Source: a virus
Length of the DNA: 64,000 nt
Strand: one strand, 5' to 3'
Virus record (IMG/VR): IMGVR_UViG_3300034175_000062
Span: 36,456 to 100,455 of that record
Positions 1,049 to 15,938 of the stretch are shown here, one piece after another. The position numbers and the translations under genes were made by a program. Position 1 is the stretch's first letter, and each line of letters opens with the position of its first letter. The notes under the pieces were generated by a model, which saw nothing but the letters and a program-made list of their open reading frames with translations, was not told the origin of the DNA and ran no database searches.

Positions 1049-1280
1049 GGTGATTTCCCTTCCGTTTTGGAGAACCCCTTGTTCCCCTTTGATGTTACCA
1101 TTCTATACAATACGCAATGCGTTGTAAACGGTTATTTTGATCGAGGCGCAAGTCTTTCTGGCCATCTGAGAGCGATCAACCATGCATGGCACGCTCCTAC
1201 CATGGGACTCAGATCACCTCTGACGCCCTCAACTTTCTCCTTTACAAAGTGGATGTATCGACTTAGAATGGGCCATCATC

Positions 1281-1469
1281 CTAAGACAATTTCGGCCTGG
1301 TCTCCCAGTCGACCTTCTCCATCGCGTACCCCATGCGGTAGGCAGCGAGTCGATGATGGTCGAGATCGGGGTTACCGAGTGGCTTGCCGGCGAGGAAGTC
1401 CTCCTGTCCCTGCTTGTACGCGTCGTGTTCTGCTGGAGCGTCGTTCCGCGGCTTTACGCTGATATGCAT
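1281..1469 (-). CDS. Hypothetical protein
   Basis: MHISVKPR..., AGGAG RBS; start reassigned. Confidence 0.7.
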   Translation of the reverse strand: MHISVKPRNDAPAEHDAYKQGQEDFLAGKPLGNPDLDHHRLAAYRMGYAMEKVDWETRPKLS

Positions 1470-1699
1470 AGCGCTGTCTCCTGGTTGTGATAGACGGCGA
1501 TAGCGAGCGCCCAATACTGTAGCGACTCGTACGGCACGCCTTCGATCTCTTTCGGTACGCCCTGTGGACGCTGACCGTGGAAGATAATTGCCCACTGATC
1601 GTGGCCCATATATCGAGCCTGAGCGTAGAGGATCTTCTCGTCGTTGCTGACGAAGTGCAGCTGGTCTTCCTTGCGGATCCAGGTGATGCTAGTCGACAT
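1454..1699 (-). CDS. Hypothetical protein
   Basis: AGGAGG RBS after cassette promoter. Confidence 0.8.
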   Translation of the reverse strand: MSTSITWIRKEDQLHFVSNDEKILYAQARYMGHDQWAIIFHGQRPQGVPKEIEGVPYESLQYWALAIAVYHNQETALCISA

Positions 1700-1837
1700 C
1701 GTTATCCTCCTTGCCTTACCCTCTTATTCTATCATGAGATCAATGCCATGTAAAGGGCTATTTTAGCGCTCGCAATCAAGGCCACGCCATCAATGCCTAT
1801 CTAGACGCGCAATGCGCCCGCTGGTCGATCGATCGAT

Positions 1838-2029
1838 TCAGCTGTTATACTGCACAGACTCGATACAGTCGGCCGCGATAGTGAGAGTATCGAAGGGGCT
1901 GTTGCTCTTCGATGTGTCCATGACGACCTCGTTGTGCTCCTGGTGATAGGCGCTGATGTGTCCACGATACTCGGCACCGCTCTTGGTCCGGATGATGCAC
2001 TGTAGATCGAGAAGTGGGTTCAAACGCAT
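1838..2029 (-). CDS. Small hypothetical protein (possible Sm/SH3-like barrel)
   Basis: 63 aa, GGGAG RBS, IRTKSG.EYRG.I pattern. Confidence 0.7.
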   Translation of the reverse strand: MRLNPLLDLQCIIRTKSGAEYRGHISAYHQEHNEVVMDTSKSNSPFDTLTIAADCIESVQYNS

Positions 2030-2591
2030 TGCGCGCTCCCTAGCAGAAAAGTGGAGGGATTTTGCTCCCTTGATACACCCATTCTAATACGATTCGCAGT
2101 GAGTGTAAAGGACTATTTTTGATGCGCAATGCGCCGGCTGGCGTTTGTTCGATCCTGCAAGGGCGGATGTATAGGGTAGTCCTCATTGCGCCCTACGGAA
2201 CTACATTGCAGAACATTGCATCTGCATGGCGATTTCAATAGCGAAATATCCCGGGTCACTGAGTTCTTGCGAACAGCTGGTCGAACGCCGGGTTGAGTGA
2301 GGTGGGGTGTTTCGATAACAGGGATTAAATCCATGTCGTTCAGACACCATTGTTTTCTGATCATATACATCGCCTATTGACGTTTGTATGTACGTTGCAT
2401 TAGAGTAATGCATCAGCCCTACGTCGTCTATAGGAATATTGTACACGCGTCTACGCAGCGATGGATGTTTATTCTCCTATCGCTTATTAGCTATTAGATA
2501 TCGTGTATGATCGTCTGAGAAATAGACGCGTAAGTATCGTTTCTTGTTATAGAAAGATTGATGGTACGTCATGAAGACGAGATGGATGATG

Positions 2592-2819
2592 TTATCCCGG
2601 ATGACGACGGCTCCATTCGAGGAAGCTGATCGCTCGAGCATGCGGGTTCTGGATCAGGAAGGAGTCGCCACGATTACGGTCGCGGAAGAAGCCCCAGTAC
2701 CAGTACCAGTTGAAGCGATCGCCCTTTATCTCGAAGATGTCGCTGATCGTGAAGTCGCCGGTATTGAGGTCACCCTGGAATGCGACGACACGGATCGGCT
2801 TGTCGTGTTCTACGATCAT
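2592..2819 (-). CDS. Hypothetical protein
   Basis: ATGA-coupled to 2816-3019. Confidence 0.65.
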   Translation of the reverse strand: MIVEHDKPIRVVAFQGDLNTGDFTISDIFEIKGDRFNWYWYWGFFRDRNRGDSFLIQNPHARAISFLEWSRRHPG

Positions 2820-3019
2820 GCTACGTACTCCCCGGCTGCTTTTCTAGCTTCGACGCCACACTGATAGCAGCGAGTCTCGTCGCCTACCCGGTGTGCGTTA
2901 GGACGCGATTGGTTCATCTTCCCCACGTGGTCGCATTCTTCGAAGGAGACGAGGACGACACTAGGCGTCGCTTCGACTTTCTTCACGGTGCGAAAGATTC
3001 CACGAGGGTCGATTGACAT
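2816..3019 (-). CDS. Small putative Zn-binding protein
   Basis: ECDH...CYQC; promoter and RBS upstream. Confidence 0.75.
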   Translation of the reverse strand: MSIDPRGIFRTVKKVEATPSVVLVSFEECDHVGKMNQSRPNAHRVGDETRCYQCGVEARKAAGEYVA

Positions 3020-3040
3020 TTCCTGTCTCCTTATACGCTC

Positions 3041-3111
3041 ATTCTATACAGTCGGCGGAAAACGTCAACAAGAATGTTACCCTTGACGTTTGTTTTTCTG
3101 CGACTTAGTAT
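3041..3111. promoter_or_regulatory. Back-to-back promoter hairpin
   Basis: Leftward TTGACG-N16-TAGAAT; rightward TTGACG(3083)-N17-TAGTAT(3106). Confidence 0.75.
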
Positions 3112-3542
3112 GTGAGCTGATACCAGACGTCGACTTCTTCGATGAGCTGGGCTGGAGTCTTATCATCGATCGTCGTTTTGAAGATGGGAGCCGGTCCTAC
3201 ACCCGGAACGTGGATCGCGCTGTTCGCAGCGTAGTCCAGTTCGATGTTGTAGAAGAACTTGTGGTCGTACTGCCAGCTCTGGTCGTCGTAGAAGTCTGGG
3301 ATCGTGTGGCCATCCTCGATACCGACGACTCGATTGCGCTCCTCACCGTCCGCCTTGTGGTCGTGTTCGACGATGATCTGACGCTCGTTGCGTGGCGCAG
3401 GGAGGGCACCAGCACTGCCCATGATCGACGGGAAGATGATGCCCCGCACGGCAGCGTTAAAGTGGTCGCCGAAGACGCCATGATGCTCGGAACCCTCGTG
3501 GGCGCCGATAGCGCCGATGAGTGCTGGATGGTGTGCCGTCAT
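3105..3542 (-). CDS. Hypothetical protein
   Basis: 145 aa, AGGAG RBS, cassette promoter. Confidence 0.8.
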   Translation of the reverse strand: MTAHHPALIGAIGAHEGSEHHGVFGDHFNAAVRGIIFPSIMGSAGALPAPRNERQIIVEHDHKADGEERNRVVGIEDGHTIPDFYDDQSWQYDHKFFYNIELDYAANSAIHVPGVGPAPIFKTTIDDKTPAQLIEEVDVWYQLTY

Positions 3543-3596
3543 ACCTGTCTCCTTATACGCCTATTCTATCACGTGACGGGAAATCGTCAAGGACTA

Positions 3597-3842
3597 TTAT
3601 GACTCCTGCCTAATGACGAACTGTCGATCGAAGCCATTCGCTGCCAGATAGAGGAAGTCTGACGACATGCCGCCATGTTCACCCCACTCGATCGCTGGAT
3701 CGAAGTCGACATAGCCAGCCTCTTCGGCCTGCTTCTGACAGTACTCGATCGCTTCGCCGGGCGTGTCGAAGGTCTTCACCTCGTCGATACGTACGCCGAC
3801 CTTCGGGTCAAGATCGATGTTGACAAATGTGTAGCGGCGCAC
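3597..3842 (-). CDS. Hypothetical protein
   Basis: 81 aa, in operon. Confidence 0.75.
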   Translation of the reverse strand: MRRYTFVNIDLDPKVGVRIDEVKTFDTPGEAIEYCQKQAEEAGYVDFDPAIEWGEHGGMSSDFLYLAANGFDRQFVIRQES

Positions 3843-3844
3843 TA

Positions 3845-4072
3845 CTATTCATCCTTCTCGATCAGGGCGTAGATCGAGTTCCGGGTCTCGGCGTACTGAA
3901 CGCCGTCCTCTTCGAACATCGATACGACCGGCGACGTGATGATATAGTCGCCAGTCTCTGCGCCGGCTGCTTCCTGGTTGAGCATCGCCTTACCGCGGAT
4001 GCGATGATCGGCGTAGTGGCGATACTCCTTCCAGTTACGGAGGACGTTGACGATCTTCTTGCCGTTACGCAT
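3845..4072 (-). CDS. Hypothetical phage protein
   Basis: I.TSPV...AETRNSIY.L motif seen in myophage early proteins. Confidence 0.8.
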   Translation of the reverse strand: MRNGKKIVNVLRNWKEYRHYADHRIRGKAMLNQEAAGAETGDYIITSPVVSMFEEDGVQYAETRNSIYALIEKDE

Positions 4073-4253
4073 CGCGCTTTTCCCCGTTGCTGATGATGTG
4101 GACGACCTGCCACTTCTCGGTGTCGAAGATGACGAATTCCGAGGTGCCGAACTCTTTCGACGTTGCCATCGCGAAGCGGACTGCGTTGGCGTAGAGGCCG
4201 AAGCGGCCCCAGAGGACGAAGGGATTGTCCTTACGATATACGACTAGATGCAT
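4065..4253 (-). CDS. Hypothetical protein
   Basis: AGGAG RBS after promoter. Confidence 0.75.
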   Translation of the reverse strand: MHLVVYRKDNPFVLWGRFGLYANAVRFAMATSKEFGTSEFVIFDTEKWQVVHIISNGEKRDA

Positions 4254-4306
4254 AACCGCTCTCCTTATACACCCATTCTAATACGATACGCCATCCTTGT
4301 AAAGGA

Positions 4307-4567
4307 CTATCTTAGCGCCTCCGTGATCATATTGTACCGACCGCGACCGGCCGCCTTGACCGTCACCTTGTACTTCTTGCCCTCGATCTCGAACGCGAAG
4401 CCGAACGGACGCTTGTACGCCTTGATGCATGGGACGCCGGCGAACCTGGTCGCGGCAGCACGATACTCCTCGATGTCCTCGTACTGTTTCTCGTCCTGCC
4501 AGCGCTCGTACAGGTTGAGGACCCACGGCGCCTTCATGATCTCTTCGACCTTCGCAGGGAATGGCAT
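4307..4567 (-). CDS. Hypothetical phage protein
   Basis: LYERWQDEK.YED..EY...KRPFGF motif; GGAG RBS. Confidence 0.8.
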   Translation of the reverse strand: MPFPAKVEEIMKAPWVLNLYERWQDEKQYEDIEEYRAAATRFAGVPCIKAYKRPFGFAFEIEGKKYKVTVKAAGRGRYNMITEALR

Positions 4568-4569
4568 CG

Positions 4570-4689
4570 TTATTCTCCGATCTCGAACAGGGTGTTGATG
4601 AAGTTGGTGACGATGTTCGTCTTCGAGTCGATGATCAGGAGGGCGATAGCCGCCGAACCAATTGCCATGACTACTAGAAGCGTTCCCAT
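4570..4689 (-). CDS. 39-aa membrane peptide (not in ORF track)
   Basis: MGTLLVVMAIGSAAIALLIID..., GAGGG RBS directly after promoter. Confidence 0.65.
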   Translation of the reverse strand: MGTLLVVMAIGSAAIALLIIDSKTNIVTNFINTLFEIGE

Positions 4690-4714
4690 TGCCTATTCCC
4701 TCATTTGATAACCC

Positions 4715-4785
4715 ATTCTATCACGATACAGAAAAACGTCAAGGTATATTTCAACCTTGACGTTTGCTGTAGTTCGTGTTAGTCT
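4715..4785. promoter_or_regulatory. Back-to-back promoter hairpin
   Basis: AAACGTCAAGGT...ACCTTGACGTTT; leftward TAGAAT, rightward TTGACG(4757)-N17-TAGTCT. Confidence 0.8.
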
Positions 4786-5021
4786 TCGGTCTTAGTGATC
4801 AAAAATGGAGGCTCGAAGTCGGTATGTTCCGGAACGTGGTCGTTCAACCAGGCGATGATCTCGTCAGACTCACCTGAGACTGACTGAGTGTCCTCGTCGT
4901 AGTCTGGGTGGTGTACGAGGTAGCCATTGAACTCGTCGTTCAGATATTCGACGATCTCGGACTCGTTGCTGAAGTCCTCTTCGAAGTCCATCTCGTTGTC
5001 GTTGTGGACGATCTTGACCAT
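4779..5021 (-). CDS. Very acidic small protein (candidate DNA mimic)
   Basis: 80 aa, 24 D/E vs 2 K and 0 R; AAGGAG RBS. Confidence 0.8.
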   Translation of the reverse strand: MVKIVHNDNEMDFEEDFSNESEIVEYLNDEFNGYLVHHPDYDEDTQSVSGESDEIIAWLNDHVPEHTDFEPPFLITKTED

Positions 5022-5080
5022 GCTACTATTCTCCTTACAGGAATATACTAACACGATAGCCAGAAATGTCAATAACTAAG

Positions 5081-5320
5081 TTAGTCGACCTCCATGAAGA
5101 AGGAGATGATGACCTTCTCGTCTGCAGGCCCGCTGTCGATGACCTCTCTGTCCATGAGCAGATCGACCTCGTCCTCCTGGAGTCCGAGTTCCCGGCGACA
5201 GTACCGAAGCGCTTCAGCGAATCGTGTGAAGACCTTGATCTCGGCCTTGTTGTAGCCGCCGCCGATCAGCTCGGGCTGGTGGTTGACCGTCTCCTGCGAG
5301 ACTACAGTGTACCTCTTCAT
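5081..5320 (-). CDS. Hypothetical protein
   Basis: ATGA-coupled to 5317-5673. Confidence 0.75.
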   Translation of the reverse strand: MKRYTVVSQETVNHQPELIGGGYNKAEIKVFTRFAEALRYCRRELGLQEDEVDLLMDREVIDSGPADEKVIISFFMEVD

Positions 5321-5673
5321 TTCGTCACCTTCTTTCTGAGTGGTCGTGGGATCACATTGCGCGGATTGTCGACGCGACAGGCGGTGCCACGACCACGATC
5401 GCTATCACGATTATATCGCCAGCCGGTGGTGTGCTCTTCGCCATCGAGCATGACCGTTTCTCCATCGCTGAAGCGGACACATTCGTATTTGCCGATCTCG
5501 ATGCAGGTGACCTCAGTGCCATCGAGGCACTTGTACGTCTCACCGAGAACGAATGGCTCGGTCGGGTTATCGCGACGATGATCGTGGTATGCTTTCGACA
5601 ACGCCATGTATGCGATATACGCATCGCCGGTGAGGGCTTCATCCTCGATGTAGAGCGTAACCGTAACCGTCAT
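5317..5673 (-). CDS. Hypothetical protein
   Basis: AGGAG RBS after promoter. Confidence 0.8.
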   Translation of the reverse strand: MTVTVTLYIEDEALTGDAYIAYMALSKAYHDHRRDNPTEPFVLGETYKCLDGTEVTCIEIGKYECVRFSDGETVMLDGEEHTTGWRYNRDSDRGRGTACRVDNPRNVIPRPLRKKVTK

Positions 5674-5743
5674 ACCCTGTCTCCTTATACACCCATTCTA
5701 TAACGATTGGGCCACATTGTAAAGGCATTTGTTTGCCTTGACA

Positions 5744-6118
5744 TTACCGCCAGATCGGATAGAGTGTATCGGTGAGCATGTTGATGTCCTCGAGGATCGT
5801 GTCTCGCTGGTGATCGACTTCTTCCAGTGCGCCTCTCTCAGATTGATCCAGAGTGCCCTCTTCATGCTTCACCATGAGCTCCTCCCAATACGGAGTAATC
5901 TCACTCAGAAGGGCATTCAGCTTATCGATTTTACCCTTTGCTTCCTTCTTAGCAGCAGCCTTATCCGCCCTCTCCTGCCTCTCCCAGATCTTCTTCGTCC
6001 TGGCTCGCTCTTGCTCGGCCTCACGTTGACGCTTGATAGCGCCCGAACGGAGTGCGACGAGGTTTGCGTTGGCCTGGCGCCGAAGCTGCACGACGTCTGT
6101 TTGCTTCCAGTACATCAC
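5744..6118 (-). CDS. Coiled-coil hypothetical protein
   Basis: 124 aa, charged and helical. Confidence 0.75.
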   Translation of the reverse strand: MMYWKQTDVVQLRRQANANLVALRSGAIKRQREAEQERARTKKIWERQERADKAAAKKEAKGKIDKLNALLSEITPYWEELMVKHEEGTLDQSERGALEEVDHQRDTILEDINMLTDTLYPIWR

Positions 6119-6402
6119 AGGCTCGCATCGATACGGTGGATGGTGTACGAATGAGCCCGCTTATCGGCCCGGTCGGTACGCTCGTGGTCGTCGATCTTCT
6201 TCTCGATCTCATCGAACGAGTTGCCGATGAACATGATGCCGTAGACGTAGCACCAGAAGAACGTCGTGTTGTCCGTCCGGAAGAAGAAGCCGCCCATCGT
6301 GCAGTGGTAGACGTACTTAGCGTCCTTATCGCCGTAGACGTGCTCCGGGATCATCGGCCAGCCGATACGTTCCGCGTTCTCTGGGGTGTTAAGATAGAGC
6401 AT
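6115..6402 (-). CDS. Hypothetical protein
   Basis: AGGAG RBS after promoter. Confidence 0.8.
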   Translation of the reverse strand: MLYLNTPENAERIGWPMIPEHVYGDKDAKYVYHCTMGGFFFRTDNTTFFWCYVYGIMFIGNSFDEIEKKIDDHERTDRADKRAHSYTIHRIDASL

Positions 6403-6459
6403 CTCAATCTCCTTATAAAGAGATACTATAACGATTGGGCAGAAACGTCAAGGGCTATT

Positions 6460-6927
6460 TTACCCTTGACAAATGAAGTTAGGGACATACTCCTTCTGGT
6501 AGAGGATCTTCTCGATGACTGCACGATCACGATTGACCCATTGCTGATTGCTCAGGACGAGATAGTACTCCTTCGTCTCTGGCAGGAACTGGATGAAGTA
6601 GCGATCGACGTACTTGTAGCCGGACGATGTATCGCCTTCATCGATGCCGTAGCACTCAGCGAAGTCCTTGTCGCTCTGATCGACGAGCTTCTCCGTCATC
6701 CTGAACTCCTCGAAGGAGAGCGGCGTCAGGCCGAAGGTCATCTGCATGATGTCGTAGAGCCGCGCCAGCGATGCGTTCGAGAGGGCGTGGACCTTATTGC
6801 GTGCTTCCTTCGCCATCAGATAGGCGTCGGTCTTCGGCATGCTGTCGGTCTTGTAGTAGAGCTGCAAGTCGTCGAACATGTTCTGGACTTTGATCGCCTT
6901 CTGATAGGTATCGAGTTCCTTACGCAT
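6460..6927 (-). CDS. Hypothetical protein
   Basis: MRKELD..., AGGAG RBS; start reassigned. Confidence 0.8.
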   Translation of the reverse strand: MRKELDTYQKAIKVQNMFDDLQLYYKTDSMPKTDAYLMAKEARNKVHALSNASLARLYDIMQMTFGLTPLSFEEFRMTEKLVDQSDKDFAECYGIDEGDTSSGYKYVDRYFIQFLPETKEYYLVLSNQQWVNRDRAVIEKILYQKEYVPNFICQG

Positions 6928-6955
6928 GGTGTTCTCCTTGCCTCTTGATACACCC

Positions 6956-7026
6956 ATTCTAATACGATACACAGAAACGTCAAGGCATATTTTTACCTTG
7001 ACGTTTGTTGTGGACTGTATTAGACC
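6956..7026. promoter_or_regulatory. Back-to-back promoter hairpin
   Basis: AAACGTCAAGG...CCTTGACGTTT; rightward TTGACG(6998)-N17-TAGACC. Confidence 0.7.
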
Positions 7027-7319
7027 GATTCAGCTAACCAAGTCTCAACGCGATGCACTAGCTCGAGGCGAGGGATCTTCGACCCGCCCATGATCACCAG
7101 CGTATTTTCTGGTCCGACCGGAGAGACGAACTGAGCGACATCAGCCTCATCGTCTACGTCGATCACACAGAAGCCGTGAGTGACGCCGCTATCGCCGGTA
7201 TAAGCCGGGATGCCGTTGTTCTCGGCTTCGGAGTCGAATGGGACGTCCTCTACATGCTCATAGACGAGCTTGCCGAGTGTAGCGTTCCAGGTGTAGCTGA
7301 AGATGGCGTGTAATCGCAT
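7020..7319 (-). CDS. Hypothetical protein
   Basis: 99 aa in operon. Confidence 0.75.
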   Translation of the reverse strand: MRLHAIFSYTWNATLGKLVYEHVEDVPFDSEAENNGIPAYTGDSGVTHGFCVIDVDDEADVAQFVSPVGPENTLVIMGGSKIPRLELVHRVETWLAESV

Positions 7320-7323
7320 GTCG

Positions 7324-7620
7324 TTATCCTATGATCTGGCCGGTGTCGGCGTCGATTGCCCGGACAGTTCCCGGAATGTTCTGCGAGGCGAGGTGGTCAG
7401 TCCTCCAACCAGCGTCCTTGTAGGAGCAGCGAATGACGCCGACCCAACGACCATCTGAGCCCCGTCGCTGGATCTCGGCCTTACGACCGCCTACGACCTG
7501 TGGCGTGTAACTGCCACGACTGCTCTTACCGAACAGCTTCTGGAACAGCATGACGACCATGGCGAGGACGAAACAGACGAGGCTTAGAGCAAAGTATTCC
7601 ATTGGACTTCTCCTTGACAT
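7324..7620 (-). CDS. Membrane-anchored hypothetical protein
   Basis: N-terminal hydrophobic helix. Confidence 0.75.
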   Translation of the reverse strand: MSRRSPMEYFALSLVCFVLAMVVMLFQKLFGKSSRGSYTPQVVGGRKAEIQRRGSDGRWVGVIRCSYKDAGWRTDHLASQNIPGTVRAIDADTGQIIG

Positions 7621-7626
7621 TCGTTC

Positions 7627-7911
7627 TCAGGCAGGATAGCCTATATTCCCATCAACCAGCTTGCTCTCATCGATCCCGTACATCATTTCGACGGGAATTC
7701 CGGTGATCGTCAGCTGATAGTCAGGCGAAGGAAATGCGATACGGAGTTGCGCCATCAGGGCGATCAGGTGACCGTGGTCGCTATTGGGAGTCAGCACCCG
7801 GGTGTAGTGATAGTACTGGGGTGCTGTGTTGTTCCAATTGCGACCCTTCGCTTTGGCCACGTTGACCTCGAAGTTCTTGATGAGCGGCAGCTTCTCCATG
7901 ATCTTCTCCAT
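7627..7911 (-). CDS. Hypothetical protein
   Basis: AAGGA RBS after promoter. Confidence 0.75.
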   Translation of the reverse strand: MEKIMEKLPLIKNFEVNVAKAKGRNWNNTAPQYYHYTRVLTPNSDHGHLIALMAQLRIAFPSPDYQLTITGIPVEMMYGIDESKLVDGNIGYPA

Positions 7912-7996
7912 CCGTCCTTATAGAGAGATACTAACACACCCGAGGGAAAATGTCAAATGGCGTGCCTACCATACGATAAGCACGCCATTCAATGGA

Positions 7997-8656
7997 TTAT
8001 GCGGTCGCGTAGATGACGGACCGCTTTCTCAGTCCGTACGCCATCATGCCGAAGCCGATCAGCATCATCGCCCAGGTCGAGGGTTCCGGGACAGCTGATG
8101 CGGTGTCGTAGACATATGTCACGGTGGACGAGATGTAATATCCCGTGCCGTGCAGATATGTCGGCTGCAGCGCGGTGCCGTCGAGTGACCCGAAGTTCAG
8201 CGAAGGAGCGCTATAGATGCTGATGAAGTCATCGTCACCCTTGCTTATGAACTGATCGATGAAGTCGCCGGTGAAGATCGATTTCACGTTGCCGCCGAAG
8301 CTGACGACCGCAGTCTCGGGATTCGCGAAATAGCTGTCAGCGATCTTGTCGATCTTGACAGATCCATAGAGCGAGTCGCCCATGGTCCCGACGATATGAA
8401 CCGCCGGACCCATGATCGGTTCATAAGCGCTGATCGATGGCATATCGAATGGTTGATATGCCGCGAACGAGAAGCTCCCGTCATAGTAGTTGTCGAAGCT
8501 GACGCTCTTCAGTGTCCCCAGCCTGCTGTCGAACTTCGACAGATAGACGGACGACGGTCCGTATTGGTATTCGGACTTCTTCATCTCCTCAGCCACAGCT
8601 GGTGCTGCGACCATGGAAAGCGAAGCGCAAATAATCAGGATGCCATGTCGAAACAT
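7997..8656 (-). CDS. PEPxxWA-CTERM sorting-domain surface protein (choice-of-anchor-E-like N-domain)
   Basis: Signal peptide MFRHGILIICASLSMVAAPAVA; KFDSRLGTLKSVSF; C-term VPEPSTWAMMLIGFGMMAYGLRKR. Confidence 0.92.
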   Translation of the reverse strand: MFRHGILIICASLSMVAAPAVAEEMKKSEYQYGPSSVYLSKFDSRLGTLKSVSFDNYYDGSFSFAAYQPFDMPSISAYEPIMGPAVHIVGTMGDSLYGSVKIDKIADSYFANPETAVVSFGGNVKSIFTGDFIDQFISKGDDDFISIYSAPSLNFGSLDGTALQPTYLHGTGYYISSTVTYVYDTASAVPEPSTWAMMLIGFGMMAYGLRKRSVIYATA

Positions 8657-8721
8657 AATATATTCCTTTCTTATCACCAATCTAGTTGGTATAGTAATAC
8701 TATAACGATTGAAGGAAAATG

Positions 8722-9198
8722 TCAAACGGCATTAATCTTAGCGTCTGCCTCACGAAGGAGTCTGATCTCTGTGTCACGCCGCCACGATGCTTCGCTGCGC
8801 TGCATGCTGTCCCACTTAACACGACCGTCAACGCGGACTGCCCAGCAATAGCCGTCGTCACCGTTCTCCTGACGCATCGTTACACGTCGGGTGAACTTGT
8901 CGGAGGTCGGCTTGATCGACGAGCGAAGATACTCGATACACGCTTTGATGATGGATGGCTGGGTCTCGAAGACGATGCGCTTATACGATCGGTCATAACG
9001 AAATGCCTCTGCCACGAAGTACGACTCAGTACGACGCTTACCAGGTGCCGCCGGCTTCAGCTTACGCTCAGCTACGACTTGGAACTTGCGCGATCCATAC
9101 TTCACACCGATATAGGCGATGTGTGTGGTGTCGTCCTTCTTGCTGGCGCCGAGGTTGGTGACGCCTTTGAAGGTGTATTCTGGCGTAGGTTTCGTCAT
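8722..9198 (-). CDS. Hypothetical phage protein
   Basis: 158 aa, GDDGYCWAV..DG motif. Confidence 0.8.
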   Translation of the reverse strand: MTKPTPEYTFKGVTNLGASKKDDTTHIAYIGVKYGSRKFQVVAERKLKPAAPGKRRTESYFVAEAFRYDRSYKRIVFETQPSIIKACIEYLRSSIKPTSDKFTRRVTMRQENGDDGYCWAVRVDGRVKWDSMQRSEASWRRDTEIRLLREADAKINAV

Positions 9199-9210
9199 GG
9201 CGTTATCTCT

Positions 9211-9525
9211 CTACCAGCGCTTGATCGCGAGGATGGACAGAACGCGACCGAGCAGGGTCGGACACGAGTTGAACGAGGTGAGGACCAGCGATCCACGACC
9301 AAAGCTGCCGAGCGGCGGATGGACTACGCCGACATCGTAGCCATTGCCTGCCTCGTTCTCGAGCCGGATGCGACCGCCGAAATTCTGCTTGACCACCACG
9401 CCCTCGTGGTGGATCGATGCGGGATAGAGGACGAACTTCTCGCCCTTATCGTTGACACCGGCTTCAGCGATGGACTCTACGATGGAGTCCCATTCGACGT
9501 CCGATACAGTGAATTCCTTGCTCAT
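9211..9525 (-). CDS. Hypothetical protein
   Basis: GGAG RBS after promoter; start reassigned. Confidence 0.75.
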   Translation of the reverse strand: MSKEFTVSDVEWDSIVESIAEAGVNDKGEKFVLYPASIHHEGVVVKQNFGGRIRLENEAGNGYDVGVVHPPLGSFGRGSLVLTSFNSCPTLLGRVLSILAIKRW

Positions 9526-9600
9526 GATGATCTCCATCCGTTGATATAGAGATACTAATACGTTTTGGCCTAGTTGTAAAGGCGAATATTCAATTGACAA

Positions 9601-9900
9601 ACAAGAACAGCCAGAGTATAACCCTGGCTGTTCCCGTGGACCTTCATTTTGTAGGCGTTGAGATCGAGTGAGTCTGCAGTTTGTCGCAGTGAGTCAGAGA
9701 TCTATTCGCCTGGGGTTTTGGCCCTATGTGCGTTGGCGCTTGACTGTTACGGTGTTAACGTCCTGCGTCGTAACAGTCTATGTCAGGACAATCCGGAAAT
9801 CCACGTCATGCTTATCGTCTCCGATCGCGCCGTTGGTATTGGAACGCCAGGCCATACTGATACTCTGTGGCCGTTACTGATACTCTATAGCCTTCCAATA
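9601..9900 (-). ncRNA. Candidate ~300-nt multi-domain structured RNA
   Basis: Promoter TTTACA-N17-TAGTAT (9934-9906), terminator 9605-9632, no credible ORF, nested stems and repeated loops. Confidence 0.7.
9605..9632 (-). terminator. Intrinsic terminator
   Basis: GAACAGCCAG/CTGGCTGTTC stem followed by U-rich tract on minus strand. Confidence 0.75.
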
Positions 9901-10037
9901 ACAAGATACTATAACGATTGGTCCTAGTTGTAAAGGACTATATTATGGCCGTCGTGGCTCGACTGCATGCGTGAACAGGAACCACGACGGCCTTCCGACG
10001 TCGGTCGGGTCGCTCCGTAAAGCCCGACGCCGAAACT

Positions 10038-10274
10038 CTAAAGCAATTCAACCTCGTTGATACGAAAGGACATGCAACTGCCAACGTGCGACAGCTCCTT
10101 CCGTATCGTCTCTTCATCGATTGGCTCACCACAGAAGTCGCCAGCCTCGAGAGCGCTCTTTACCGCCTTGTTGAGCGTGCCGCAGACACTCCAGATCGTC
10201 GTCTTGTCGTCAACGAGGTTCTCGACCTCTACGAGGAAGACGGTGGGTGCTTCTCTGGGTACGCCGAAAACCAT
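10038..10274 (-). CDS. Hypothetical protein
   Basis: TGATG-coupled ORF. Confidence 0.7.
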   Translation of the reverse strand: MVFGVPREAPTVFLVEVENLVDDKTTIWSVCGTLNKAVKSALEAGDFCGEPIDEETIRKELSHVGSCMSFRINEVELL

Positions 10275-10459
10275 CAGTCGTCGATCTTCAGTAGAGTGAC
10301 CTCGTTTAGAACGATGGCCATCTCACCATGAACGAAGTGACTGAATACGAAGAAACGACCCCGCCAGTCGATCACGCCAGGTGTAGCGATAGTCGCGGCT
10401 GGGACGTCAGTCTCGTGTACAGTCTGACCGTCCATCGTATTGAGGATCAAATGATACAT
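10274..10459 (-). CDS. Hypothetical protein behind structured leader
   Basis: MYHLILNTMDG...; start reassigned. Confidence 0.65.
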   Translation of the reverse strand: MYHLILNTMDGQTVHETDVPAATIATPGVIDWRGRFFVFSHFVHGEMAIVLNEVTLLKIDD

Positions 10460-10624
10460 AGTGTCTTCCATGCAGCTTATGAGGACGGTGGCGGGTACGA
10501 AACCGCAGAACCCGACAGCAAGAGGGGAGCCAGAAGCCGGGTCACCGTCCACATAAACTGTATTATGTGGCCATTCTATCACGTGATAGGAAAATGTCAA
10601 TGGCTATTTTAGTGCGCCTTGACA

Positions 10625-10750
10625 TTACCCGGGCGCCGGGATATTCTGCCGGTTCGGCTGGGTTTGGGTCATGTAAAGTTTGAGCGTGCCCTGCAGACGC
10701 TTCCGGGGAGTGGGCTGAGAGGTGATCTTCTGCTTCTTGGAGGTATTCAT
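10625..10750 (-). CDS. 41-aa basic peptide (not in ORF track)
   Basis: MNTSKKQKITSQPTPRKRLQGTLKLY..., GGAAGGAAG RBS. Confidence 0.6.
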   Translation of the reverse strand: MNTSKKQKITSQPTPRKRLQGTLKLYMTQTQPNRQNIPAPG

Positions 10751-10786
10751 TGTCTTCTTCCTTCCTTGCTCTGAGAGGGCATCAGC

Positions 10787-10984
10787 TTAAGCTGATGGAA
10801 TGCCGTTGTTCATTCGATAGAGGCGAACTTGTTCTAGGACATCGTCCTCGCTCTGGAGTTCCAGCAGTGCATCGCACGTCATCATGTCGGTGACGATCTC
10901 TGCATCAGTCATTCCCTCGAACGTATAGCCATTTTCAGCTGCGTTCTCAAAGGCTTCCTTAACGAGTTCGGCGAGCGTTATCAT
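10787..10984 (-). CDS. Small acidic protein
   Basis: AGGAG RBS after promoter. Confidence 0.8.
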   Translation of the reverse strand: MITLAELVKEAFENAAENGYTFEGMTDAEIVTDMMTCDALLELQSEDDVLEQVRLYRMNNGIPSA

Positions 10985-11033
10985 GATGATCTCCTATCCA
11001 ATAAAGAGATACTACCACGATATGATCAAATTG

Positions 11034-11219
11034 TCAATGACGATGTTTGATCTCTCGAATGAGTACGCAGGCCGAGAGGATGACGGCCAGGGCGAAGAAC
11101 AGCATGCCAGCCGCTCCGAACCAGTTGGCCAGACTCTCGCTACCGTGTGCTAGGAACCCCGACGACATGCTGATGCAGACGAAGCTCACAACCACGGATA
11201 CGATCAGTATGAAGAGCAT
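11034..11219 (-). CDS. Two-TM membrane protein
   Basis: Two hydrophobic helices. Confidence 0.75.
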   Translation of the reverse strand: MLFILIVSVVVSFVCISMSSGFLAHGSESLANWFGAAGMLFFALAVILSACVLIREIKHRH

Positions 11220-11533
11220 CAGCTGGCCCTCTCCCTCATCTGCTCGATCTCTGCCAGGCCGATGACTCGTGCCGTTCCGTTCTCGATCTTGGTCTTCAAC
11301 TCGGCTAGCTCGTTCGTAACGCGCTTGTCGAGGATCTCCACGATCCGGTCGGAAGTCGCACCAGCCAGCATGCTCTTGATCTCGTCTTCCGACGTCTGCT
11401 TAGCCAGCTGGAGAGCGTGCATGCATGCAGTGACGGTCAGAAAGTTTACGGCGTTGGGCCGTTGGATGAACGATTCAGACGCCGTCCGCATCTCGTTGGT
11501 GCAGATCATGATGGCGTGCTTCTTCATTCCCAT
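11219..11533 (-). CDS. Hypothetical protein
   Basis: GGGAG RBS after promoter. Confidence 0.8.
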   Translation of the reverse strand: MGMKKHAIMICTNEMRTASESFIQRPNAVNFLTVTACMHALQLAKQTSEDEIKSMLAGATSDRIVEILDKRVTNELAELKTKIENGTARVIGLAEIEQMRERAS

Positions 11534-11583
11534 TCGTAGTCTCCCTTATTTGATGACCCATTCTATCACGTGATAGGAAATTG

Positions 11584-12084
11584 TCAATCACTTTGTTCTT
11601 CGTCTGTCTCCGGCTTATAGTTTTCCCAGTCGATCTTAGGGAGGACCATGACGTAGAATACGCCCTCGGCTTGATCGAGCCCCTTCGTGATCGTGATCAG
11701 GTTGACATCGATCCCAGCGACCTCACATTCTGCACGAATGCGTTTGTCGAGCTGATGGATGATGGTTCGTTCATCGTGCCAGTAGAAGACGCGGTTGTGC
11801 CACAACTGGATGATGGCTGGAGCGTTCTCCTTCGAGGTAAACGAGTCGCTCATCTCCCACGACTTGTAGATCTCGGCGTCCATGTGCTCCTGGATGAGCG
11901 TGGCGTCGCCGTTGTCGAACAGCTGCGCCTTATAAGGCTGGTCGTGCTCCGTCGTCCAGATCAGCCAATAGCCACCGTTCATCTCGAACTTGAAGAAGAT
12001 CGACTCGCGGATGTCCCAGCTGTTGATAAACTCATCGAGACCCGGCAGCGTTGTGGTCCGAAATGCACCGTTCATATCGAGCAT
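11584..12084 (-). CDS. Hypothetical protein
   Basis: GGGAG RBS; start reassigned. Confidence 0.8.
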   Translation of the reverse strand: MLDMNGAFRTTTLPGLDEFINSWDIRESIFFKFEMNGGYWLIWTTEHDQPYKAQLFDNGDATLIQEHMDAEIYKSWEMSDSFTSKENAPAIIQLWHNRVFYWHDERTIIHQLDKRIRAECEVAGIDVNLITITKGLDQAEGVFYVMVLPKIDWENYKPETDEEQSD

Positions 12085-12109
12085 GGTGATCTCCCTATCC
12101 AATAAGAAG

Positions 12110-12181
12110 ATACTAATACAAACAAGAAAAAACGTCAAGGCATATTTCAGCCTTGACGTTTGATGTAGTTCGGATTAGGCT
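12110..12181. promoter_or_regulatory. Back-to-back promoter hairpin
   Basis: AAACGTCAAGGC...GCCTTGACGTTT; rightward TTGACG(12153)-N17-TAGGCT. Confidence 0.8.
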
Positions 12182-12441
12182 AGCTGAAGTTGCTGGGTGC
12201 TATCCCAGAGCTTTCTCTCGAGTTCCTCGAGTCCCGAGCCGTCGTATGCAGCAATGGGGATCTTGTTGATCGTAACGATATAGAACTCTGGGCCGATCTC
12301 CTCGATCCAGCCCACGATACGATCTTGTGGGTCGCGATATATGAAGCCGATAGGTGTAACACCCGGGACATCTACATCGCGGCCTAGATTGGTTGTGTAT
12401 CGTCTAAGAGCGATAAACGCATCGAAGTCGAACATAGCCAT
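12175..12441 (-). CDS. Hypothetical protein
   Basis: GGAG RBS. Confidence 0.75.
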   Translation of the reverse strand: MAMFDFDAFIALRRYTTNLGRDVDVPGVTPIGFIYRDPQDRIVGWIEEIGPEFYIVTINKIPIAAYDGSGLEELERKLWDSTQQLQLA

Positions 12442-12474
12442 GACATTTCTCCGTCCCCCCGCATAGGTGGACGT

Positions 12475-12651
12475 TTAGAGGGACTTGTACTTCTCGCTGC
12501 CGTTCGAGCGAGCGAAGCGATCAAATACGCTCTTCGCATTGTCAGCCGAGGTAGCGCCGGACTTGAACTTGGACTTGCCGGTCGACATGGGAACCTTCAT
12601 AACACGAACAGGTTTACCGTCGCGACCGATGTTGGTAATAGGCATGCTCAT
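12475..12651 (-). CDS. 58-aa basic protein (not in ORF track)
   Basis: MSMPITNIGRDGKPVRVMKVPMSTGKSKFKSG..., GGAG RBS after promoter. Confidence 0.7.
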   Translation of the reverse strand: MSMPITNIGRDGKPVRVMKVPMSTGKSKFKSGATSADNAKSVFDRFARSNGSEKYKSL

Positions 12652-12715
12652 ATTTCTCTCTCCATGCTGAGGGTTTCATCTTAACACAGGATAAGGCAGA
12701 TGTAAACCCACTTTG

Positions 12716-12904
12716 TTAAACGACAGGAAAATAATTTACCTGCCAAGAACGGCCAGACCGTGATATAATGGCATACTCGGTCGGCTCGTTGTGAGCGTCT
12801 AGGAGGGCGCCTGGCTTTCTATATAGCAGCCCGCCGTCCTTGACGTCGTAATGGATCGTGTAACCAGACTCGATAACGAGCTTGATGGCGTTCTTCTTCG
12901 TCAT
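12716..12904 (-). CDS. Hypothetical protein
   Basis: TGATG-coupled. Confidence 0.7.
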   Translation of the reverse strand: MTKKNAIKLVIESGYTIHYDVKDGGLLYRKPGALLDAHNEPTEYAIISRSGRSWQVNYFPVV

Positions 12905-13155
12905 CAGCTGATTGGCTGTTTGTACGTGAAGATGCCCTGCTTGTTCTCGACCTCATAGATCACGTTGTCGATTGTGACAGACTGCGCAACGCGGTTCTCG
13001 TCTTCACTGATCGACTGTAGGTTACCGAGAAGCGAACCCTGGATGTACCCGTCTGGGTCTTCCTTGTTGAAGTCGAGGATTCGAATAAGGTCGTTGTGTA
13101 TCTCGTAAGTCATCGTCCAAACGTACGATGCGATGACCATTGCTGCTTTCTTCAA
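12904..13155 (-). CDS. Hypothetical protein
   Basis: In operon; start uncertain. Confidence 0.6.
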   Translation of the reverse strand: MKKAAMVIASYVWTMTYEIHNDLIRILDFNKEDPDGYIQGSLLGNLQSISEDENRVAQSVTIDNVIYEVENKQGIFTYKQPIS

Positions 13156-13415
13156 ACTATTGTTCCATTTGCTTTACACACGAACTCGAGCATGACGCGA
13201 TGTGCTACGTCACCAGGAAGATCGCTAAATCGATTATGATACTCCGCGCCATCGGCGTCGAAGAAGGTGAAGTGGAACTCGGTGGGATGACGATTCGATG
13301 GTATCACTTTACCAGTACGAAACGGACGCTTGAGATGATCCCATGGTCCTGTCTTCGATGGTATGAAACAGGCTCGACGATCTAGTAAGAAACGCGTCGG
13401 CACTTTAATCGTCAT
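13152..13415 (-). CDS. Hypothetical protein
   Basis: MTIKVPTRF..., overlaps stop of ArfA-like ORF. Confidence 0.7.
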   Translation of the reverse strand: MTIKVPTRFLLDRRACFIPSKTGPWDHLKRPFRTGKVIPSNRHPTEFHFTFFDADGAEYHNRFSDLPGDVAHRVMLEFVCKANGTIV

Positions 13416-13539
13416 AGTCGAGTTCTCTCTTGAACGCACGACGGTTATAGGAGGAACCCTTGCCTTTGAACAGGGGCTCGGAACGAGGTTGGAATTGACC
13501 CTGGGAGAGGCCGGCTGCGATGACGTTACGCTTCTTCAT
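13405..13539 (-). CDS. arfA: ArfA-like alternative ribosome-rescue factor (44 aa, not in ORF track)
   Basis: MKKRNVIAAGLSQGQFQPRSEPLFKGKGSSYNRRAFK matches ArfA core N.I.A.L....F..R.E...KGKGSY.R; AAAGGA RBS, own promoter. Confidence 0.7.
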   Translation of the reverse strand: MKKRNVIAAGLSQGQFQPRSEPLFKGKGSSYNRRAFKRELDYDD

Positions 13540-13609
13540 GGTGTGTTCCTTTCGAAGCTTAGTCTAACACAGCCTCCTCAAATTGTCAACCGTTGACATT
13601 CAGTTGTAT

Positions 13610-13885
13610 TTAGCTTATCTTCAACCCACGGTCAAGACGGGCTGCAATAGCCTTCGACCGTACGTAGACCTTAGATGCTGTAGTGAAGGCGTAGTTGCTT
13701 CGCTGGGCGACTAGGACACCATCTCGTGGGCCTCGTGGTCGGTACCACCAGTGGTCCTTATCGAGCGTCCATCGACCGTACTTTTCGCCGGGATTGAACA
13801 GAGAACCGTGACCATCACGCACGTTCTTCTCACGACCAAGGCGTAGTGCCCGTTGGTCCATCGTCTCGTTCTGTATGTCGGACAT
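13610..13885 (-). CDS. Basic hypothetical protein behind structured leader
   Basis: MSDIQNET..., GGAG RBS; start reassigned. Confidence 0.7.
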   Translation of the reverse strand: MSDIQNETMDQRALRLGREKNVRDGHGSLFNPGEKYGRWTLDKDHWWYRPRGPRDGVLVAQRSNYAFTTASKVYVRSKAIAARLDRGLKIS

Positions 13886-14017
13886 TCCATGCTCCGTAGG
13901 GTGTGGGCGCCGACGAGATTGGAAAGGGGTTCGTCGGCGCCCACTGCGGTATAGCATGGAAGGAGTTCAACCGCCCATGCATTATAACACGCAGATGGGA
14001 AAATGTCAAGGGCTATT

Positions 14018-14239
14018 TTAACCCTCGACTAGCTCTCTTGCTTCGATGTTTGTTTGTGCGAGCACCTTAACCTCGGCGAGGCGGAGCATGCTGGCAGCAC
14101 CACCCGGCCAGGACTTTACGACCGCTTCGAACCGCTTGATCGCGTTCTCAGGAGTGTCACGGAATCGGCTACCAGTCGACTCCCAGCCAATCGGGTGTAC
14201 GTACGTTTCGATGACATACGAGACACAGCCTTTCGCCAT
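14018..14239 (-). CDS. Hypothetical protein
   Basis: GGGAG RBS. Confidence 0.75.
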   Translation of the reverse strand: MAKGCVSYVIETYVHPIGWESTGSRFRDTPENAIKRFEAVVKSWPGGAASMLRLAEVKVLAQTNIEARELVEG

Positions 14240-14240
14240 G

Positions 14241-14519
14241 TTAGCGAGCTCCCTTATGTTCGAACCAAGCCTTAGCGATGAAGTTCTCTTCGAGGTAGGT
14301 CACGATCTTCTTCTCGGCTTCATCGTCCTCTGCGTTAGCATGAAGCTCCTCCCACGTCTTACCGCAGGCAAGCTGGAAGCCGATGATATCGTACCAGTAC
14401 TCGACCCACCGCTTTGGATGAACCTCGACACCGAGCATAGCACACAGCTCTTTGTCCACCTCTTCGAGGGGAACGACCTGTCCGGTACGCTTGGATGTTA
14501 GACTAAAGCAGTTCGGCAT
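14241..14519 (-). CDS. Hypothetical phage protein
   Basis: AGGAGG RBS after promoter. Confidence 0.85.
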   Translation of the reverse strand: MPNCFSLTSKRTGQVVPLEEVDKELCAMLGVEVHPKRWVEYWYDIIGFQLACGKTWEELHANAEDDEAEKKIVTYLEENFIAKAWFEHKGAR

Positions 14520-14578
14520 AGCCGTTTCCTCCTATCCGTTACTATGATACTAACACGATAGGAGGAAAACGTCAAGGG

Positions 14579-14959
14579 CTATTTCATACGCCAGACCATC
14601 AGGTACTTCTGCTCGAGATATCGAGTGTACCAGTGGTACTTGCCCTTCGCGTTGATCGCATAGAGCTGTTGGCGGAATCGTTGAGCCTCGTGGGGAGGCA
14701 TCTCGTAGATCGAATTGGCTGCGATCGGGAGCTCCATAGCATGAGCTATGATGTTCGCATATCCCTTAATCACGCTTGGCTGAGGTGAGCTGATGCCCTG
14801 CTCAGAGGGTGAAGCTGATTGGCTGGGAGATTCTACCATAGGAGAATACCACCTCTCGGACAAGGTCTTATCCTTGGTCCGAGCTAGTCGCTTGGCGAGG
14901 AGACGCTTGGGCTCCTTGATCCGCCGGTCAGCCACTCGATTCTGAAGTCTTAACGTCAT
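14579..14959 (-). CDS. Hypothetical protein
   Basis: GGAGG RBS after promoter. Confidence 0.75.
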   Translation of the reverse strand: MTLRLQNRVADRRIKEPKRLLAKRLARTKDKTLSERWYSPMVESPSQSASPSEQGISSPQPSVIKGYANIIAHAMELPIAANSIYEMPPHEAQRFRQQLYAINAKGKYHWYTRYLEQKYLMVWRMK

Positions 14960-15025
14960 ACATCCTCCATGCTACGTATAACCTATTTTATACACATGAC
15001 TGGATAAAGTAAAGGCCTTATTACC

Positions 15026-15054
15026 TTGACAATTTACTCGATGCTGTATATAAT
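15026..15054 (+). promoter_or_regulatory. Perfect sigma70 promoter facing a non-coding stretch
   Basis: TTGACA-N17-TATAAT. Confidence 0.85.
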
Positions 15055-15232
15055 GCCTATGGCCTTTCAAACACAGTAGTATGATCAGTTAGAAGGGATC
15101 TGAGAGGATCTAACTGATAGATTGTTAGTCCTACCATATCAGTGGTAAGTGACTCAGAGGGCACTCAGATTAACTACAGCATAGGGATATGAGATGTATG
15201 TACGTGTATGCTGTATCTGTCTTACGCACAAA

Positions 15233-15270
15233 CAAAAAGAGGGAACCCATTGCTGAGCTCCCTCTTTGTT
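15233..15270. terminator. Intrinsic terminator, likely bidirectional
   Basis: AAAAAGAGGG...CCCTCTTTGTT. Confidence 0.75.
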
Positions 15271-15290: not shown

Positions 15291-15938
15291 TTAGGCCGTG
15301 ACCGGCTCCTTGCCGTCCACCGTCTGGCCGGGTGCGAGATCGGCCTGTTCGGCTTCCTTCTGCTCCTCGATCTTCTCGGCCACCGGCTCGGGGACCGCGA
15401 CCACGAACCCAGCGAGCTTCACCGCGTAGTCGCCGAAGTCCTTGAACTCGGCCTTGATCCAGGCGATCCGCTCTTCGTCGGTGGTGAGGGCCTGGTAAGC
15501 CGTGACCTGATCGCCGACGATCACATGGCCCCGAGCGCGATCCCAGCTGAGATCCTTACCGCGAACCCCGCGGCCGAAAGCGTCTTCGACGGTGGAGAGA
15601 TTGGGCGTTTCGCCCTGGCTGTAATAATGGGCGAAGAAGTTGGCCGCCTTCGAACCAGCCCGCTTGGGGTTCTTGGCGCAGAGCACCATCAGCGGGGTCG
15701 GCTCGTTGGAAACCTCGGTGATCGGCGCCGTCTCGGTGGTGTTTTCCGATTCGACCCGCGGCGGCGGCATCAGTTCGACCGAACCGGTCTCGGTGGAAGC
15801 ATCGGTCGAACCCGTGGTCTCGGTGTTCTCGGTGCCGGTGACGTTCGCCGTGGACTGGTTGAGGGCTGCCTTGCGGCTGCGCGATGCCTTGCGAGCCGAA
15901 TCGGGGGTCGCGGTGGGGAGCTGATCGAGGTTTGCCAT
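15291..15938 (-). CDS. NPK-motif protein with disordered N-terminus (paralog of 713-1048)
   Basis: NPKRAGS..F..YY...TVEDAF..GVR.KD...D..RG...VGD. Confidence 0.85.
   Translation of the reverse strand: MANLDQLPTATPDSARKASRSRKAALNQSTANVTGTENTETTGSTDASTETGSVELMPPPRVESENTTETAPITEVSNEPTPLMVLCAKNPKRAGSKAANFFAHYYSQGETPNLSTVEDAFGRGVRGKDLSWDRARGHVIVGDQVTAYQALTTDEERIAWIKAEFKDFGDYAVKLAGFVVAVPEPVAEKIEEQKEAEQADLAPGQTVDGKEPVTA

Follow-up and report, generated by a model that had tools for sequence, protein, structure and literature searches.

Why would an array of leftward genes carry, back to back with many of its promoters, sequences that look like promoters pointing the other way? The question is raised by a 64,000-nucleotide stretch of viral DNA, positions 36,456 to 100,455 of IMG/VR record IMGVR_UViG_3300034175_000062. 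This whole stretch is called the window here, and its positions 1100-15054 hold an array of ~40 small leftward orphan genes, the hyperplastic early region of a T4-like myovirus that is uncultured. The original prediction listed ten rightward -35/-10 pairs in this region and proposed that one element of ~70 bp acts as terminator, sense promoter and antisense promoter, so that the cassettes are transcribed from both ends. What is the origin of these rightward pairs? Are they promoters at all? On a modest balance of probability, the pattern is best explained by a quasi-palindromic variant of the promoter-early stem-loop (PeSL) cassette, in which the promoter has been mirrored by a terminator hairpin.

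Leftward promoters and the hairpin over the -35 box

The early region has 24 leftward sigma-70-type promoters (minus strand, 1100-15054), placed before the small orphan genes. Each cassette is arranged in the order A-rich tract (of the AAAATAG type in most copies), -35 box, spacer of 16-17 bp, -10 box, AAGGAG ribosome site and ATG. The -35 box is TTGAC[A/G] or TTTACA. The -10 box is TAG[A/T]AT in 21 of the 24, with G at the third position in 21 (TAGAAT or TAGTAT, not TATAAT); position 5 is A in 23 and position 6 is T in all 24. By their downstream context the -10 boxes fall into two sub-families, TAGAATGGGTGTAT and TAGTATCTCTTTAT, which is consistent with spread by copying.

Stem-loops are predicted in 13 of these promoters, three of them as separate strong hairpins and ten overlapping the -35 box. 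In the ten, the hairpin over the leftward -35 is followed by a T-rich start of the spacer, a layout predicted to serve the upstream unit as an intrinsic terminator, and two cassettes were scored terminator-like by an independent scan. Because the terminator stem overlaps the leftward -35, its 5' arm carries the complement of TTGAC. This arrangement is not private to the phage. Six unrelated metagenome contigs (loci L141, L143, L146, L149, L156 and L176) have a AACGTCAAGG...CCTTGACGTT hairpin followed by a T-tract and by a -10 box (CATAAT or TATAAT) at 16 bp; a terminator stem over a -35 box therefore exists elsewhere. The palindrome itself was found in 57 unrelated metagenome contigs, one copy in each and no arrays.

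The rightward pairs and their spacing

Are the rightward pairs more than chance? All ten exist as the original prediction described them, in position, hexamers and spacers, and nine stand back to back with a leftward promoter, the pair at 7614 being the exception. The plus strand of window 1100-15100 has 20 TTGAC[AG] sites, ten of which are followed by TA at a spacer of 17 bp, and eight of these ten read TAnnnT; every other spacer from 8 to 28 is represented by 0-3 sites. The enrichment that the prediction had suggested checking is thus present, as 300 dinucleotide shuffles gave a mean of 0.45 sites and a maximum of three. Among the ten back-to-back sites (the nine just mentioned plus one at 6466, with 7614 excluded), seven have TAnnnT at a spacer of 16-18, against a regional background of 3.5%. 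Pure chance is ruled out as the cause by this enrichment and by the spacing peak. In six pairs the gap between the back-to-back -35 hexamers is exactly 14 bp.

These sites are not independent. Four of them (3083, 4757, 6998 and 12153) form, with a half-element at 2377, family A, and 5738 and 10619 form family B. Families share their flanks, including CTAA at a fixed distance, and the four sites of family A, being copies of one shared element, count as one lineage and not as four observations. All four have the AAACGTCAA/TTGACGTTT stem and the identical geometry claimed for them, in which the rightward hexamer starts at the second base of the upstream gene's TTA (= TAA). Calling the rightward promoters systematic went too far, as a rightward partner is missing for 14 of the 24 leftward promoters. 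The sites 6466, 14009, 1241, 2377 and 3820 are additions to the earlier list.

A promoter probably mirrored by its own terminator

If the second TTGAC is simply the other arm of a terminator stem, is anything left to explain? The prediction had named this as the finding that would undo it. The stem arm does cover the rightward -35 but leaves the 17-bp peak, and was rejected as a full explanation. Coincidence with stop codons was rejected as well, since it reaches family A only. What, then, places a -10-like hexamer at 17 bp?

Folding the DNA from the leftward -10 to the rightward -10 gave quasi-palindromes of ~70 nt with 22-27 pairs at 4742/4757, 6983/6998, 12138/12153, 5723/5738 and 15013/15026. 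When the rightward flank was replaced by random segments of the same region, the extension of pairing beyond the core was significant at 4742 and 6983 (p<=0.0025) and marginal at 5723, 10600 and 12138 (about 0.05-0.065); none was detected at 3068, 6451, 9580, 13589 and 15013, five of the ten cassettes. Also, a match to ATCGTGT, a motif of the leftward promoters, stands in the 8 nt ahead of the rightward hexamer at 4757 (p=0.0017), 6998 (p=0.02) and 12153 (p=0.026). The extended pairing and the ATCGTGT match together indicate that the rightward half copies the promoter in mirror image. TTAG[A/T]AT is the reading of many leftward promoters, and on the coding strand a TTAG so mirrored becomes CTAA. 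The upstream gene of family A, and of the half-element at 2377, ends with this very TAA, which lies 16 nt from the arm; the geometry of family A is identical because the mirrored TTAG doubles as the stop codon of that gene. Selection of the hairpin as RNA only was considered and rejected, its stability being equal on both strands in most cassettes.

How could such a cassette have come about? We propose composite cassettes of the PeSL type, in which a hairpin with a T-tract would end the upstream unit and an A-rich tract, a host sigma-70-type promoter and a ribosome site would follow. The terminator stem would be set over the -35 box, hence a TTGAC on the opposite strand from the other arm. In several copies the inverted repeat extends through the spacer to the -10, giving the ~70-bp quasi-palindrome with the whole promoter mirrored on the plus strand, and the rightward 'promoters' would be its mirror halves. 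The palindrome may have arisen and spread through hairpin-templated copying and PeSL-type recombination. The functions under selection would be termination, leftward initiation and possibly recombination. Rightward initiation would be incidental and weak, plausible only at the best copies (3083, 1241 and perhaps 4757, 5738 and 10619). The composite element of the original prediction survives in its structure, a hairpin with its T-tract, a sense promoter and a mirrored promoter half, and its terminator role is a predicted one.

Strength of the rightward halves

Could the mirror halves recruit RNA polymerase? Hexamers of leftward quality are found at 3083 (TAGTAT), 1241 (TAGAAT) and 15026 (TATAAT), and of these only 3083 and 15026 belong to the ten predicted pairs. 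Five of those ten boxes match the consensus at 3/6 positions. A-11 and T-7 are the critical -10 bases for sigma-70. At 4757, 5738, 10619, 12153, 13593 and 7614, T-12, A-11 and T-7 are kept in an otherwise poor hexamer; T-7 is absent at 6998 and 9594, and 6466 has no -10 at all. Position 5 is A in three of ten rightward boxes, compared with 23 of 24 leftward ones. A -35 box followed at 17+/-1 bp by a hexamer with A-11 and T-7 occurs at seven of the ten back-to-back sites and at eight of the ten predicted pairs (including 7614). The A-rich upstream tract faces the leftward promoter and not the rightward one. Rare-codon evidence for T-7 was sought and was not significant (third-position A amounts to 25-30% at gene ends vs 12% overall). 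Judged from the boxes, weak rightward activity is possible at several sites. With only 14 bp between the -35 boxes, polymerase could bind only one of the two promoters at a time, and the promoters would have to compete.

Weighing the explanations

Several observations argue for a mirrored promoter that is mainly a by-product of the hairpin. The hairpin persists where the rightward -35 is missing and G.U pairs suffice (14009) and where there is no rightward -10 (6466), 14 of the 24 cassettes do without a mirror half, and the rightward -10 boxes are degraded compared with the leftward ones. Other observations weigh against it. The peak at exactly 17 bp is sharp, and three family A cassettes have a rightward spacer of 17 although their leftward one is 16. 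The bases most needed by sigma-70 (T-12, A-11 and T-7) are kept and positions -9 and -8 vary, which is how weak but selected promoters would be expected to look. In E. coli, some activity is usual for a promoter that combines a consensus -35, a 17-bp spacer and TAnnnT. At 5723, 9580 and 15013 the outer arm has a better TTGACA opposite the leftward TTTAC[A/T], at the cost of a stem mismatch, and at 1241 there is an intact backward promoter that has no gene to serve.

These objections suit an alternative that we consider unlikely although it deserves real weight, namely that the mirror halves are selected antisense promoters and that a rightward sigma-70 promoter caps the 3' end of each early unit. 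A polymerase bound or firing there would stop read-through by head-on collision, or the antisense RNA would pair with the 3' ends of early mRNAs and speed their decay. The spacing-specific enrichment stays significant even with families collapsed, the three key bases are kept in seven of ten, TGn precedes the hexamer at 4757, and 3083 and 1241 are of full quality. The pattern is absent from the first 50 kb of RB49 and from five other T4-like phages, so it is no generic by-product of early arrays, and antisense RNAs with defined starts are known from other phages (PMC10914365). This has to be set against the poor hexamers (five of ten with 3/6 matches, two without T-7, none at 6466), the 14 cassettes that manage without a rightward half, and a palindrome and stop codon that account for the geometry without any function. 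Besides, the 14-bp gap makes binding mutually exclusive with a far stronger leftward promoter, and the sigma factor is the same as for the early promoters, with no timing switch evident. The fullest form of the claim would have every hairpin-type terminator of the array carry a working backward sigma-70 promoter, placing early units between convergent promoters for insulation or faster message decay; this appears unlikely.

Is it perhaps the long stem itself that matters? A duplex of 22-27 bp could be cut by RNase III in read-through RNA, or a cruciform-prone DNA could be a hotspot for exchange or inversion of cassettes, the mirrored promoter being passive in both cases. We regard this as improbable, given that five of ten cassettes have no extension past the core, even though extended pairing is significant in 2-5 cassettes and the outer pairs form only in read-through RNA or in DNA. 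Crossovers of PeSL cassettes map to the stem-loop, and the half-element at 2377, the inverted promoter copy at 1241 and the fossil palindrome at 3807 are also in its favour. An operator is more improbable still. Here the palindrome TGTCAAGG-N8-CCTTGACA would bind a dimeric regulator of phage or host on the -35 box and shut the early promoters off, making the -10-like hexamers irrelevant. The 14-bp gap, kept constant in the inverted repeat of six cassettes, would fit, as would the equal stability on both strands, suggestive of a palindrome at the DNA level, and the single copies on unrelated contigs from metagenomes, where in several cases a -10 stands at the right distance. However, no DNA-binding domain was found among 30 scanned early proteins, the repeat is present on only ten of 24 promoters, an RNA hairpin is suggested by the G.U pairs at 14009 and 6451 and by the T-tract that follows the stem, and a palindrome reaching the -10 is left unexplained together with the 17-bp peak. 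The quasi-palindromic PeSL variant thus remains the explanation that we prefer.

Variation among the cassettes

The four full cassettes of family A have four different rightward hexamers. In the cassette at 3041..3111 the leftward -10 occupies 3041-3046 and the -35 3063-3068; the rightward -35 (TTGACG, 3083-3088) is followed after a 17-bp spacer by TAGTAT (3106-3111), with the stop codon at 3105-3107. Its rightward half scores 20.3, compared with 19.7-21.5 for leftward promoters. The cassette at 4715..4785 has its leftward -35 at 4737-4742, the rightward TTGACG at 4757-4762 and, at a spacer of 17, TAGTCT at 4780-4785 (stop 4779-4781). It folds with 25 pairs at -30 kcal/mol on both strands (extension p=0.0025) and has TGn before the rightward hexamer. 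The longest pairing belongs to 6956..7026, with 27 pairs that include GTATTAGA on both sides and -31 kcal/mol; its leftward -35 is at 6978-6983, the rightward TTGACG at 6998-7003, and the hexamer at spacer 17 is TAGACC (7021-7026, stop 7020-7022), which has no T-7. The cassette at 12110..12181 (leftward -35 12133-12138, rightward TTGACG 12153-12158, spacer 17, TAGGCT 12176-12181, stop 12175-12177) makes 22 pairs, with an extension p about 0.065, and is terminator-like on the minus strand.

In the two cassettes of family B the stop codon directly follows the rightward -35. At 5695..5765 the leftward -35 is TTTACA (5718-5723) and the rightward one TTGACA (5738-5743, stop 5744-5746), followed at a spacer of 16 by TAGAGT (5760-5765); the 24 pairs leave one C.U mismatch in the core, and extension p is about 0.05. 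At 10573..10647 the leftward -35 is at 10595-10600, and the rightward TTGACA (10619-10624, stop 10625-10627) has TATTCT at a spacer of 17 (10642-10647).

The remaining sites are less regular. The cassette at 6423..6471 has a mirrored -35 (TTGACA, 6466-6471) with no usable -10 (TACTCC), and the upstream gene's stop codon, 6460-6462, is in the loop. At 13981..14032 (site 14009, minus strand) the hairpin over the -35 pairs via four G.U pairs, the plus strand reads CTCGAC with no rightward -35, and the predicted stability is -20.8 kcal/mol on the minus strand vs -14.8 on the plus strand. Over 6460-6471 and 14018-14029, the genes 6460-6927 and 14018-14239 run through the outer hairpin arm and end in the loop (GGG TAA and GGT TAA), so the cassette supplies their last codons. 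The back-to-back pair at 9552..9622 consists of a leftward TTTACA (9575-9580) and a rightward TTGACA (9594-9599) with TATAAC at a spacer of 17 (9617-9622). This hexamer lies in the loop of a separate strong terminator, and there is no extended palindrome (p=0.9). Nor is there one at 13561..13621, where the -35 boxes overlap in the palindrome TGTCAAC.GTTGACA; the leftward -10 is TAGACT, and the rightward pair at 13593 (TTGACA-17-TATCTT) has a weak -10. The lone rightward pair at 7614..7642 (plus strand, TTGACA-17-TAGCCT) has no partner promoter and a weak -10, and its TTGACA overlaps the ribosome site of the gene 7324-7602.

Three further sites lie on the plus strand. At 1241..1269 there is a full inverted copy of a promoter of the leftward family (TTTACA-17-TAGAAT-GGG), aimed at the 3' end of the gene 1281-1469. 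Its local alignment score is 15 (null p<0.01) and its total promoter score 21.7, no gene stands downstream of it, and it is the cleanest backward promoter of the array. The family A half-element at 2377..2406 keeps the outer arm and TTAG (TTGACG-18-TAGAGT), without inner arm and without leftward promoter. Together with chimeric arms it is consistent with recombination between copies, though no proof of it. It is held in a stretch of ~450 bp (2130-2590) that has no convincing gene and several AT-rich repeats, and that may be a decayed cassette or some other non-coding unit. The third site, at 3807..3848, is a GTCAA-N9-TTGACA palindrome inside the coding sequence of the gene 3597-3842, with TACTAT at 17 bp across the stop/start junction with the gene 3845-4072; it is possibly a fossil cassette absorbed into the open reading frame.

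Site 15026 and a candidate small RNA

What does the perfect rightward promoter at the end of the array drive? The divergent pair at 14985..15054 combines a weak leftward TTTACT-17-TAAAAT with a rightward TTGACA-17-TATAAT at 15026-15054. Although it was listed among the antisense promoters, it is antisense to no gene. On its right stands a leftward gene (15291-15938), which finishes at a hairpin predicted to terminate both ways (15236-15267), so that the promoter would drive a non-coding RNA of ~200 nt overlapping no gene. The corresponding plus-strand stretch, 15061..15270 between promoter and terminator, has no open reading frame and no gene on the other strand. Site 15026 is thus taken to be a separate, genuine rightward promoter for a candidate small non-coding RNA. 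The candidate contains a strong GATCAGTTAGA/TCTAACTGATA hairpin; it has no match in Rfam, and its fold is unexceptional (z = -0.7).

The source record

The virus record is linear, 100,455 bp long and estimated to be ~58% complete, and was assembled from a biocrust metagenome. Elsewhere in the window there are genes for a gp32-like single-strand-binding protein, for a gp5-like baseplate hub and for a gp48-like tube cap, and outside the early array there are likewise tail fibres, a ligase and NAD-salvage enzymes, all of which fit a T4-like myovirus. Looking for Gp23 and AsiA in the record gave little information, as the record is incomplete and control genomes were not matched either. A search for RNA runs found none listed for this DNA.

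Are there relatives in which the early region could be compared? A search of a phage collection with this DNA gave no near and no distant match, and the hairpin pattern was found in no viral contigs. A 14-mer taken from the promoter gave chance matches only. One tail protein led to a single 6-kb contig that does not include the early region, and the contigs of three biocrust DNA runs yielded no more than the source assembly and some short pieces, uninformative at the cassettes. Variants of roughly 90% identity were glimpsed in these runs. Among 5.8 billion proteins, a 145-aa early protein had no homologue except itself, and two further early proteins that were searched had no relatives. A Pfam scan of 30 early proteins assigned no family and no DNA-binding domain apart from one PEP-CTERM match. 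This is a 219-aa protein (minus strand, 7997-8656), encoded by a gene in an early cassette, with a PEP-CTERM sorting motif (Pfam E=7e-9), and it hints at a host with exosortase.

Relation to known systems

How does the array compare with what has been described? Antisense RNAs with mapped starts are known from Pseudomonas phages PAK_P3, LUZ19 and others (PMC10914365). They resemble the present case in that promoters in lytic phages point against the coding strand, and they are proposed to limit read-through or tune timing. They are, however, individual mapped transcripts and not mirror halves of a repeated cassette, the halves described here being predicted from sequence. Warman et al. (bioRxiv 10.1101/2020.01.31.928960; PMC12825309) showed that pseudo-symmetrical bacterial promoters can engage RNA polymerase either way, one binding excluding the other. 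Those promoters share their -10 and have starts ~18-23 bp apart; here the -35 boxes are back to back, ~60 bp separate the -10 boxes, and a terminator hairpin is the source of the symmetry. The array cassettes are not members of that symmetry-derived class. A likeness also exists to two-way intrinsic terminators (A-tract/hairpin/T-tract), as the family A stems read AAACG...CGTTT with T-rich tails on both strands (TTTGTTTTTCTG after 3083), but here the 3' arm and T-tract are also the -35 and spacer of the next promoter, and termination either way is predicted.

The closest relatives are the PeSL cassettes of the T4-type phages RB49/phi1, T4/PST and KVP40/nt-1 (Arbiol et al. 2010, PMC2839356; Comeau et al. 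2014, PMC4122927), by which T4-like phages are believed to shuffle accessory genes along with the promoter and terminator that belong to them. They too are units of ~70-100 bp, found repeatedly in hyperplastic regions of a T4-like phage, where they separate small early genes of the orphan kind. They combine an upstream stop codon within the element, an A/T-rich tract, a sigma-70-type -35/-10 with a spacer of 16-18 bp, a terminator stem-loop, and a Shine-Dalgarno sequence with ATG, repeated many times and accompanied by degraded half elements. Five subclasses have been distinguished, one with the stem over the -35, and half-PeSLs and crossovers in the loop were reported (PMC2839356, PMC4122927). 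The novelty expected by the original prediction is therefore confined to the mirrored half, the cassette type being already described: mirrored or antisense promoters are not mentioned in the PeSL papers, and the words antisense, bidirectional and palindrome are absent from the 2010 paper (PMC2839356). The first 50 kb of RB49, where all genes are leftward, show no plus-strand peak (2/17 sites), and five cultured T4-like phages (of Sinorhizobium, Rhizobium, Ochrobactrum, Stenotrophomonas and Caulobacter) have 0-4 back-to-back matches per 156-228 kb, which is the control level. The 100-kb record studied here has nine, all within the array.

What would the mirrored half mean? If the backward halves are active, they offer a simple model of how the tightly packed transcription units of a phage could be insulated, and synthetic biology would gain a compact two-way part; if the two-faced reading is true, they add a regulatory layer undescribed for PeSL arrays. 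If they are silent, they are a caution that consensus-like -35/-10 pairs with perfect spacing can stem from hairpin symmetry and stop codons alone. A hairpin grown into a promoter mirror suggests that compact regulatory repeats can create backward promoters at many gene 3' ends at once, which may be raw material for antisense control or tolerated noise. It is in this respect that the array departs from the PeSL cassettes known so far, as here the stem lies over the -35 in ten copies and in several extends outward to mirror the whole promoter, giving the TTGAC-17-TA signal on the plus strand.

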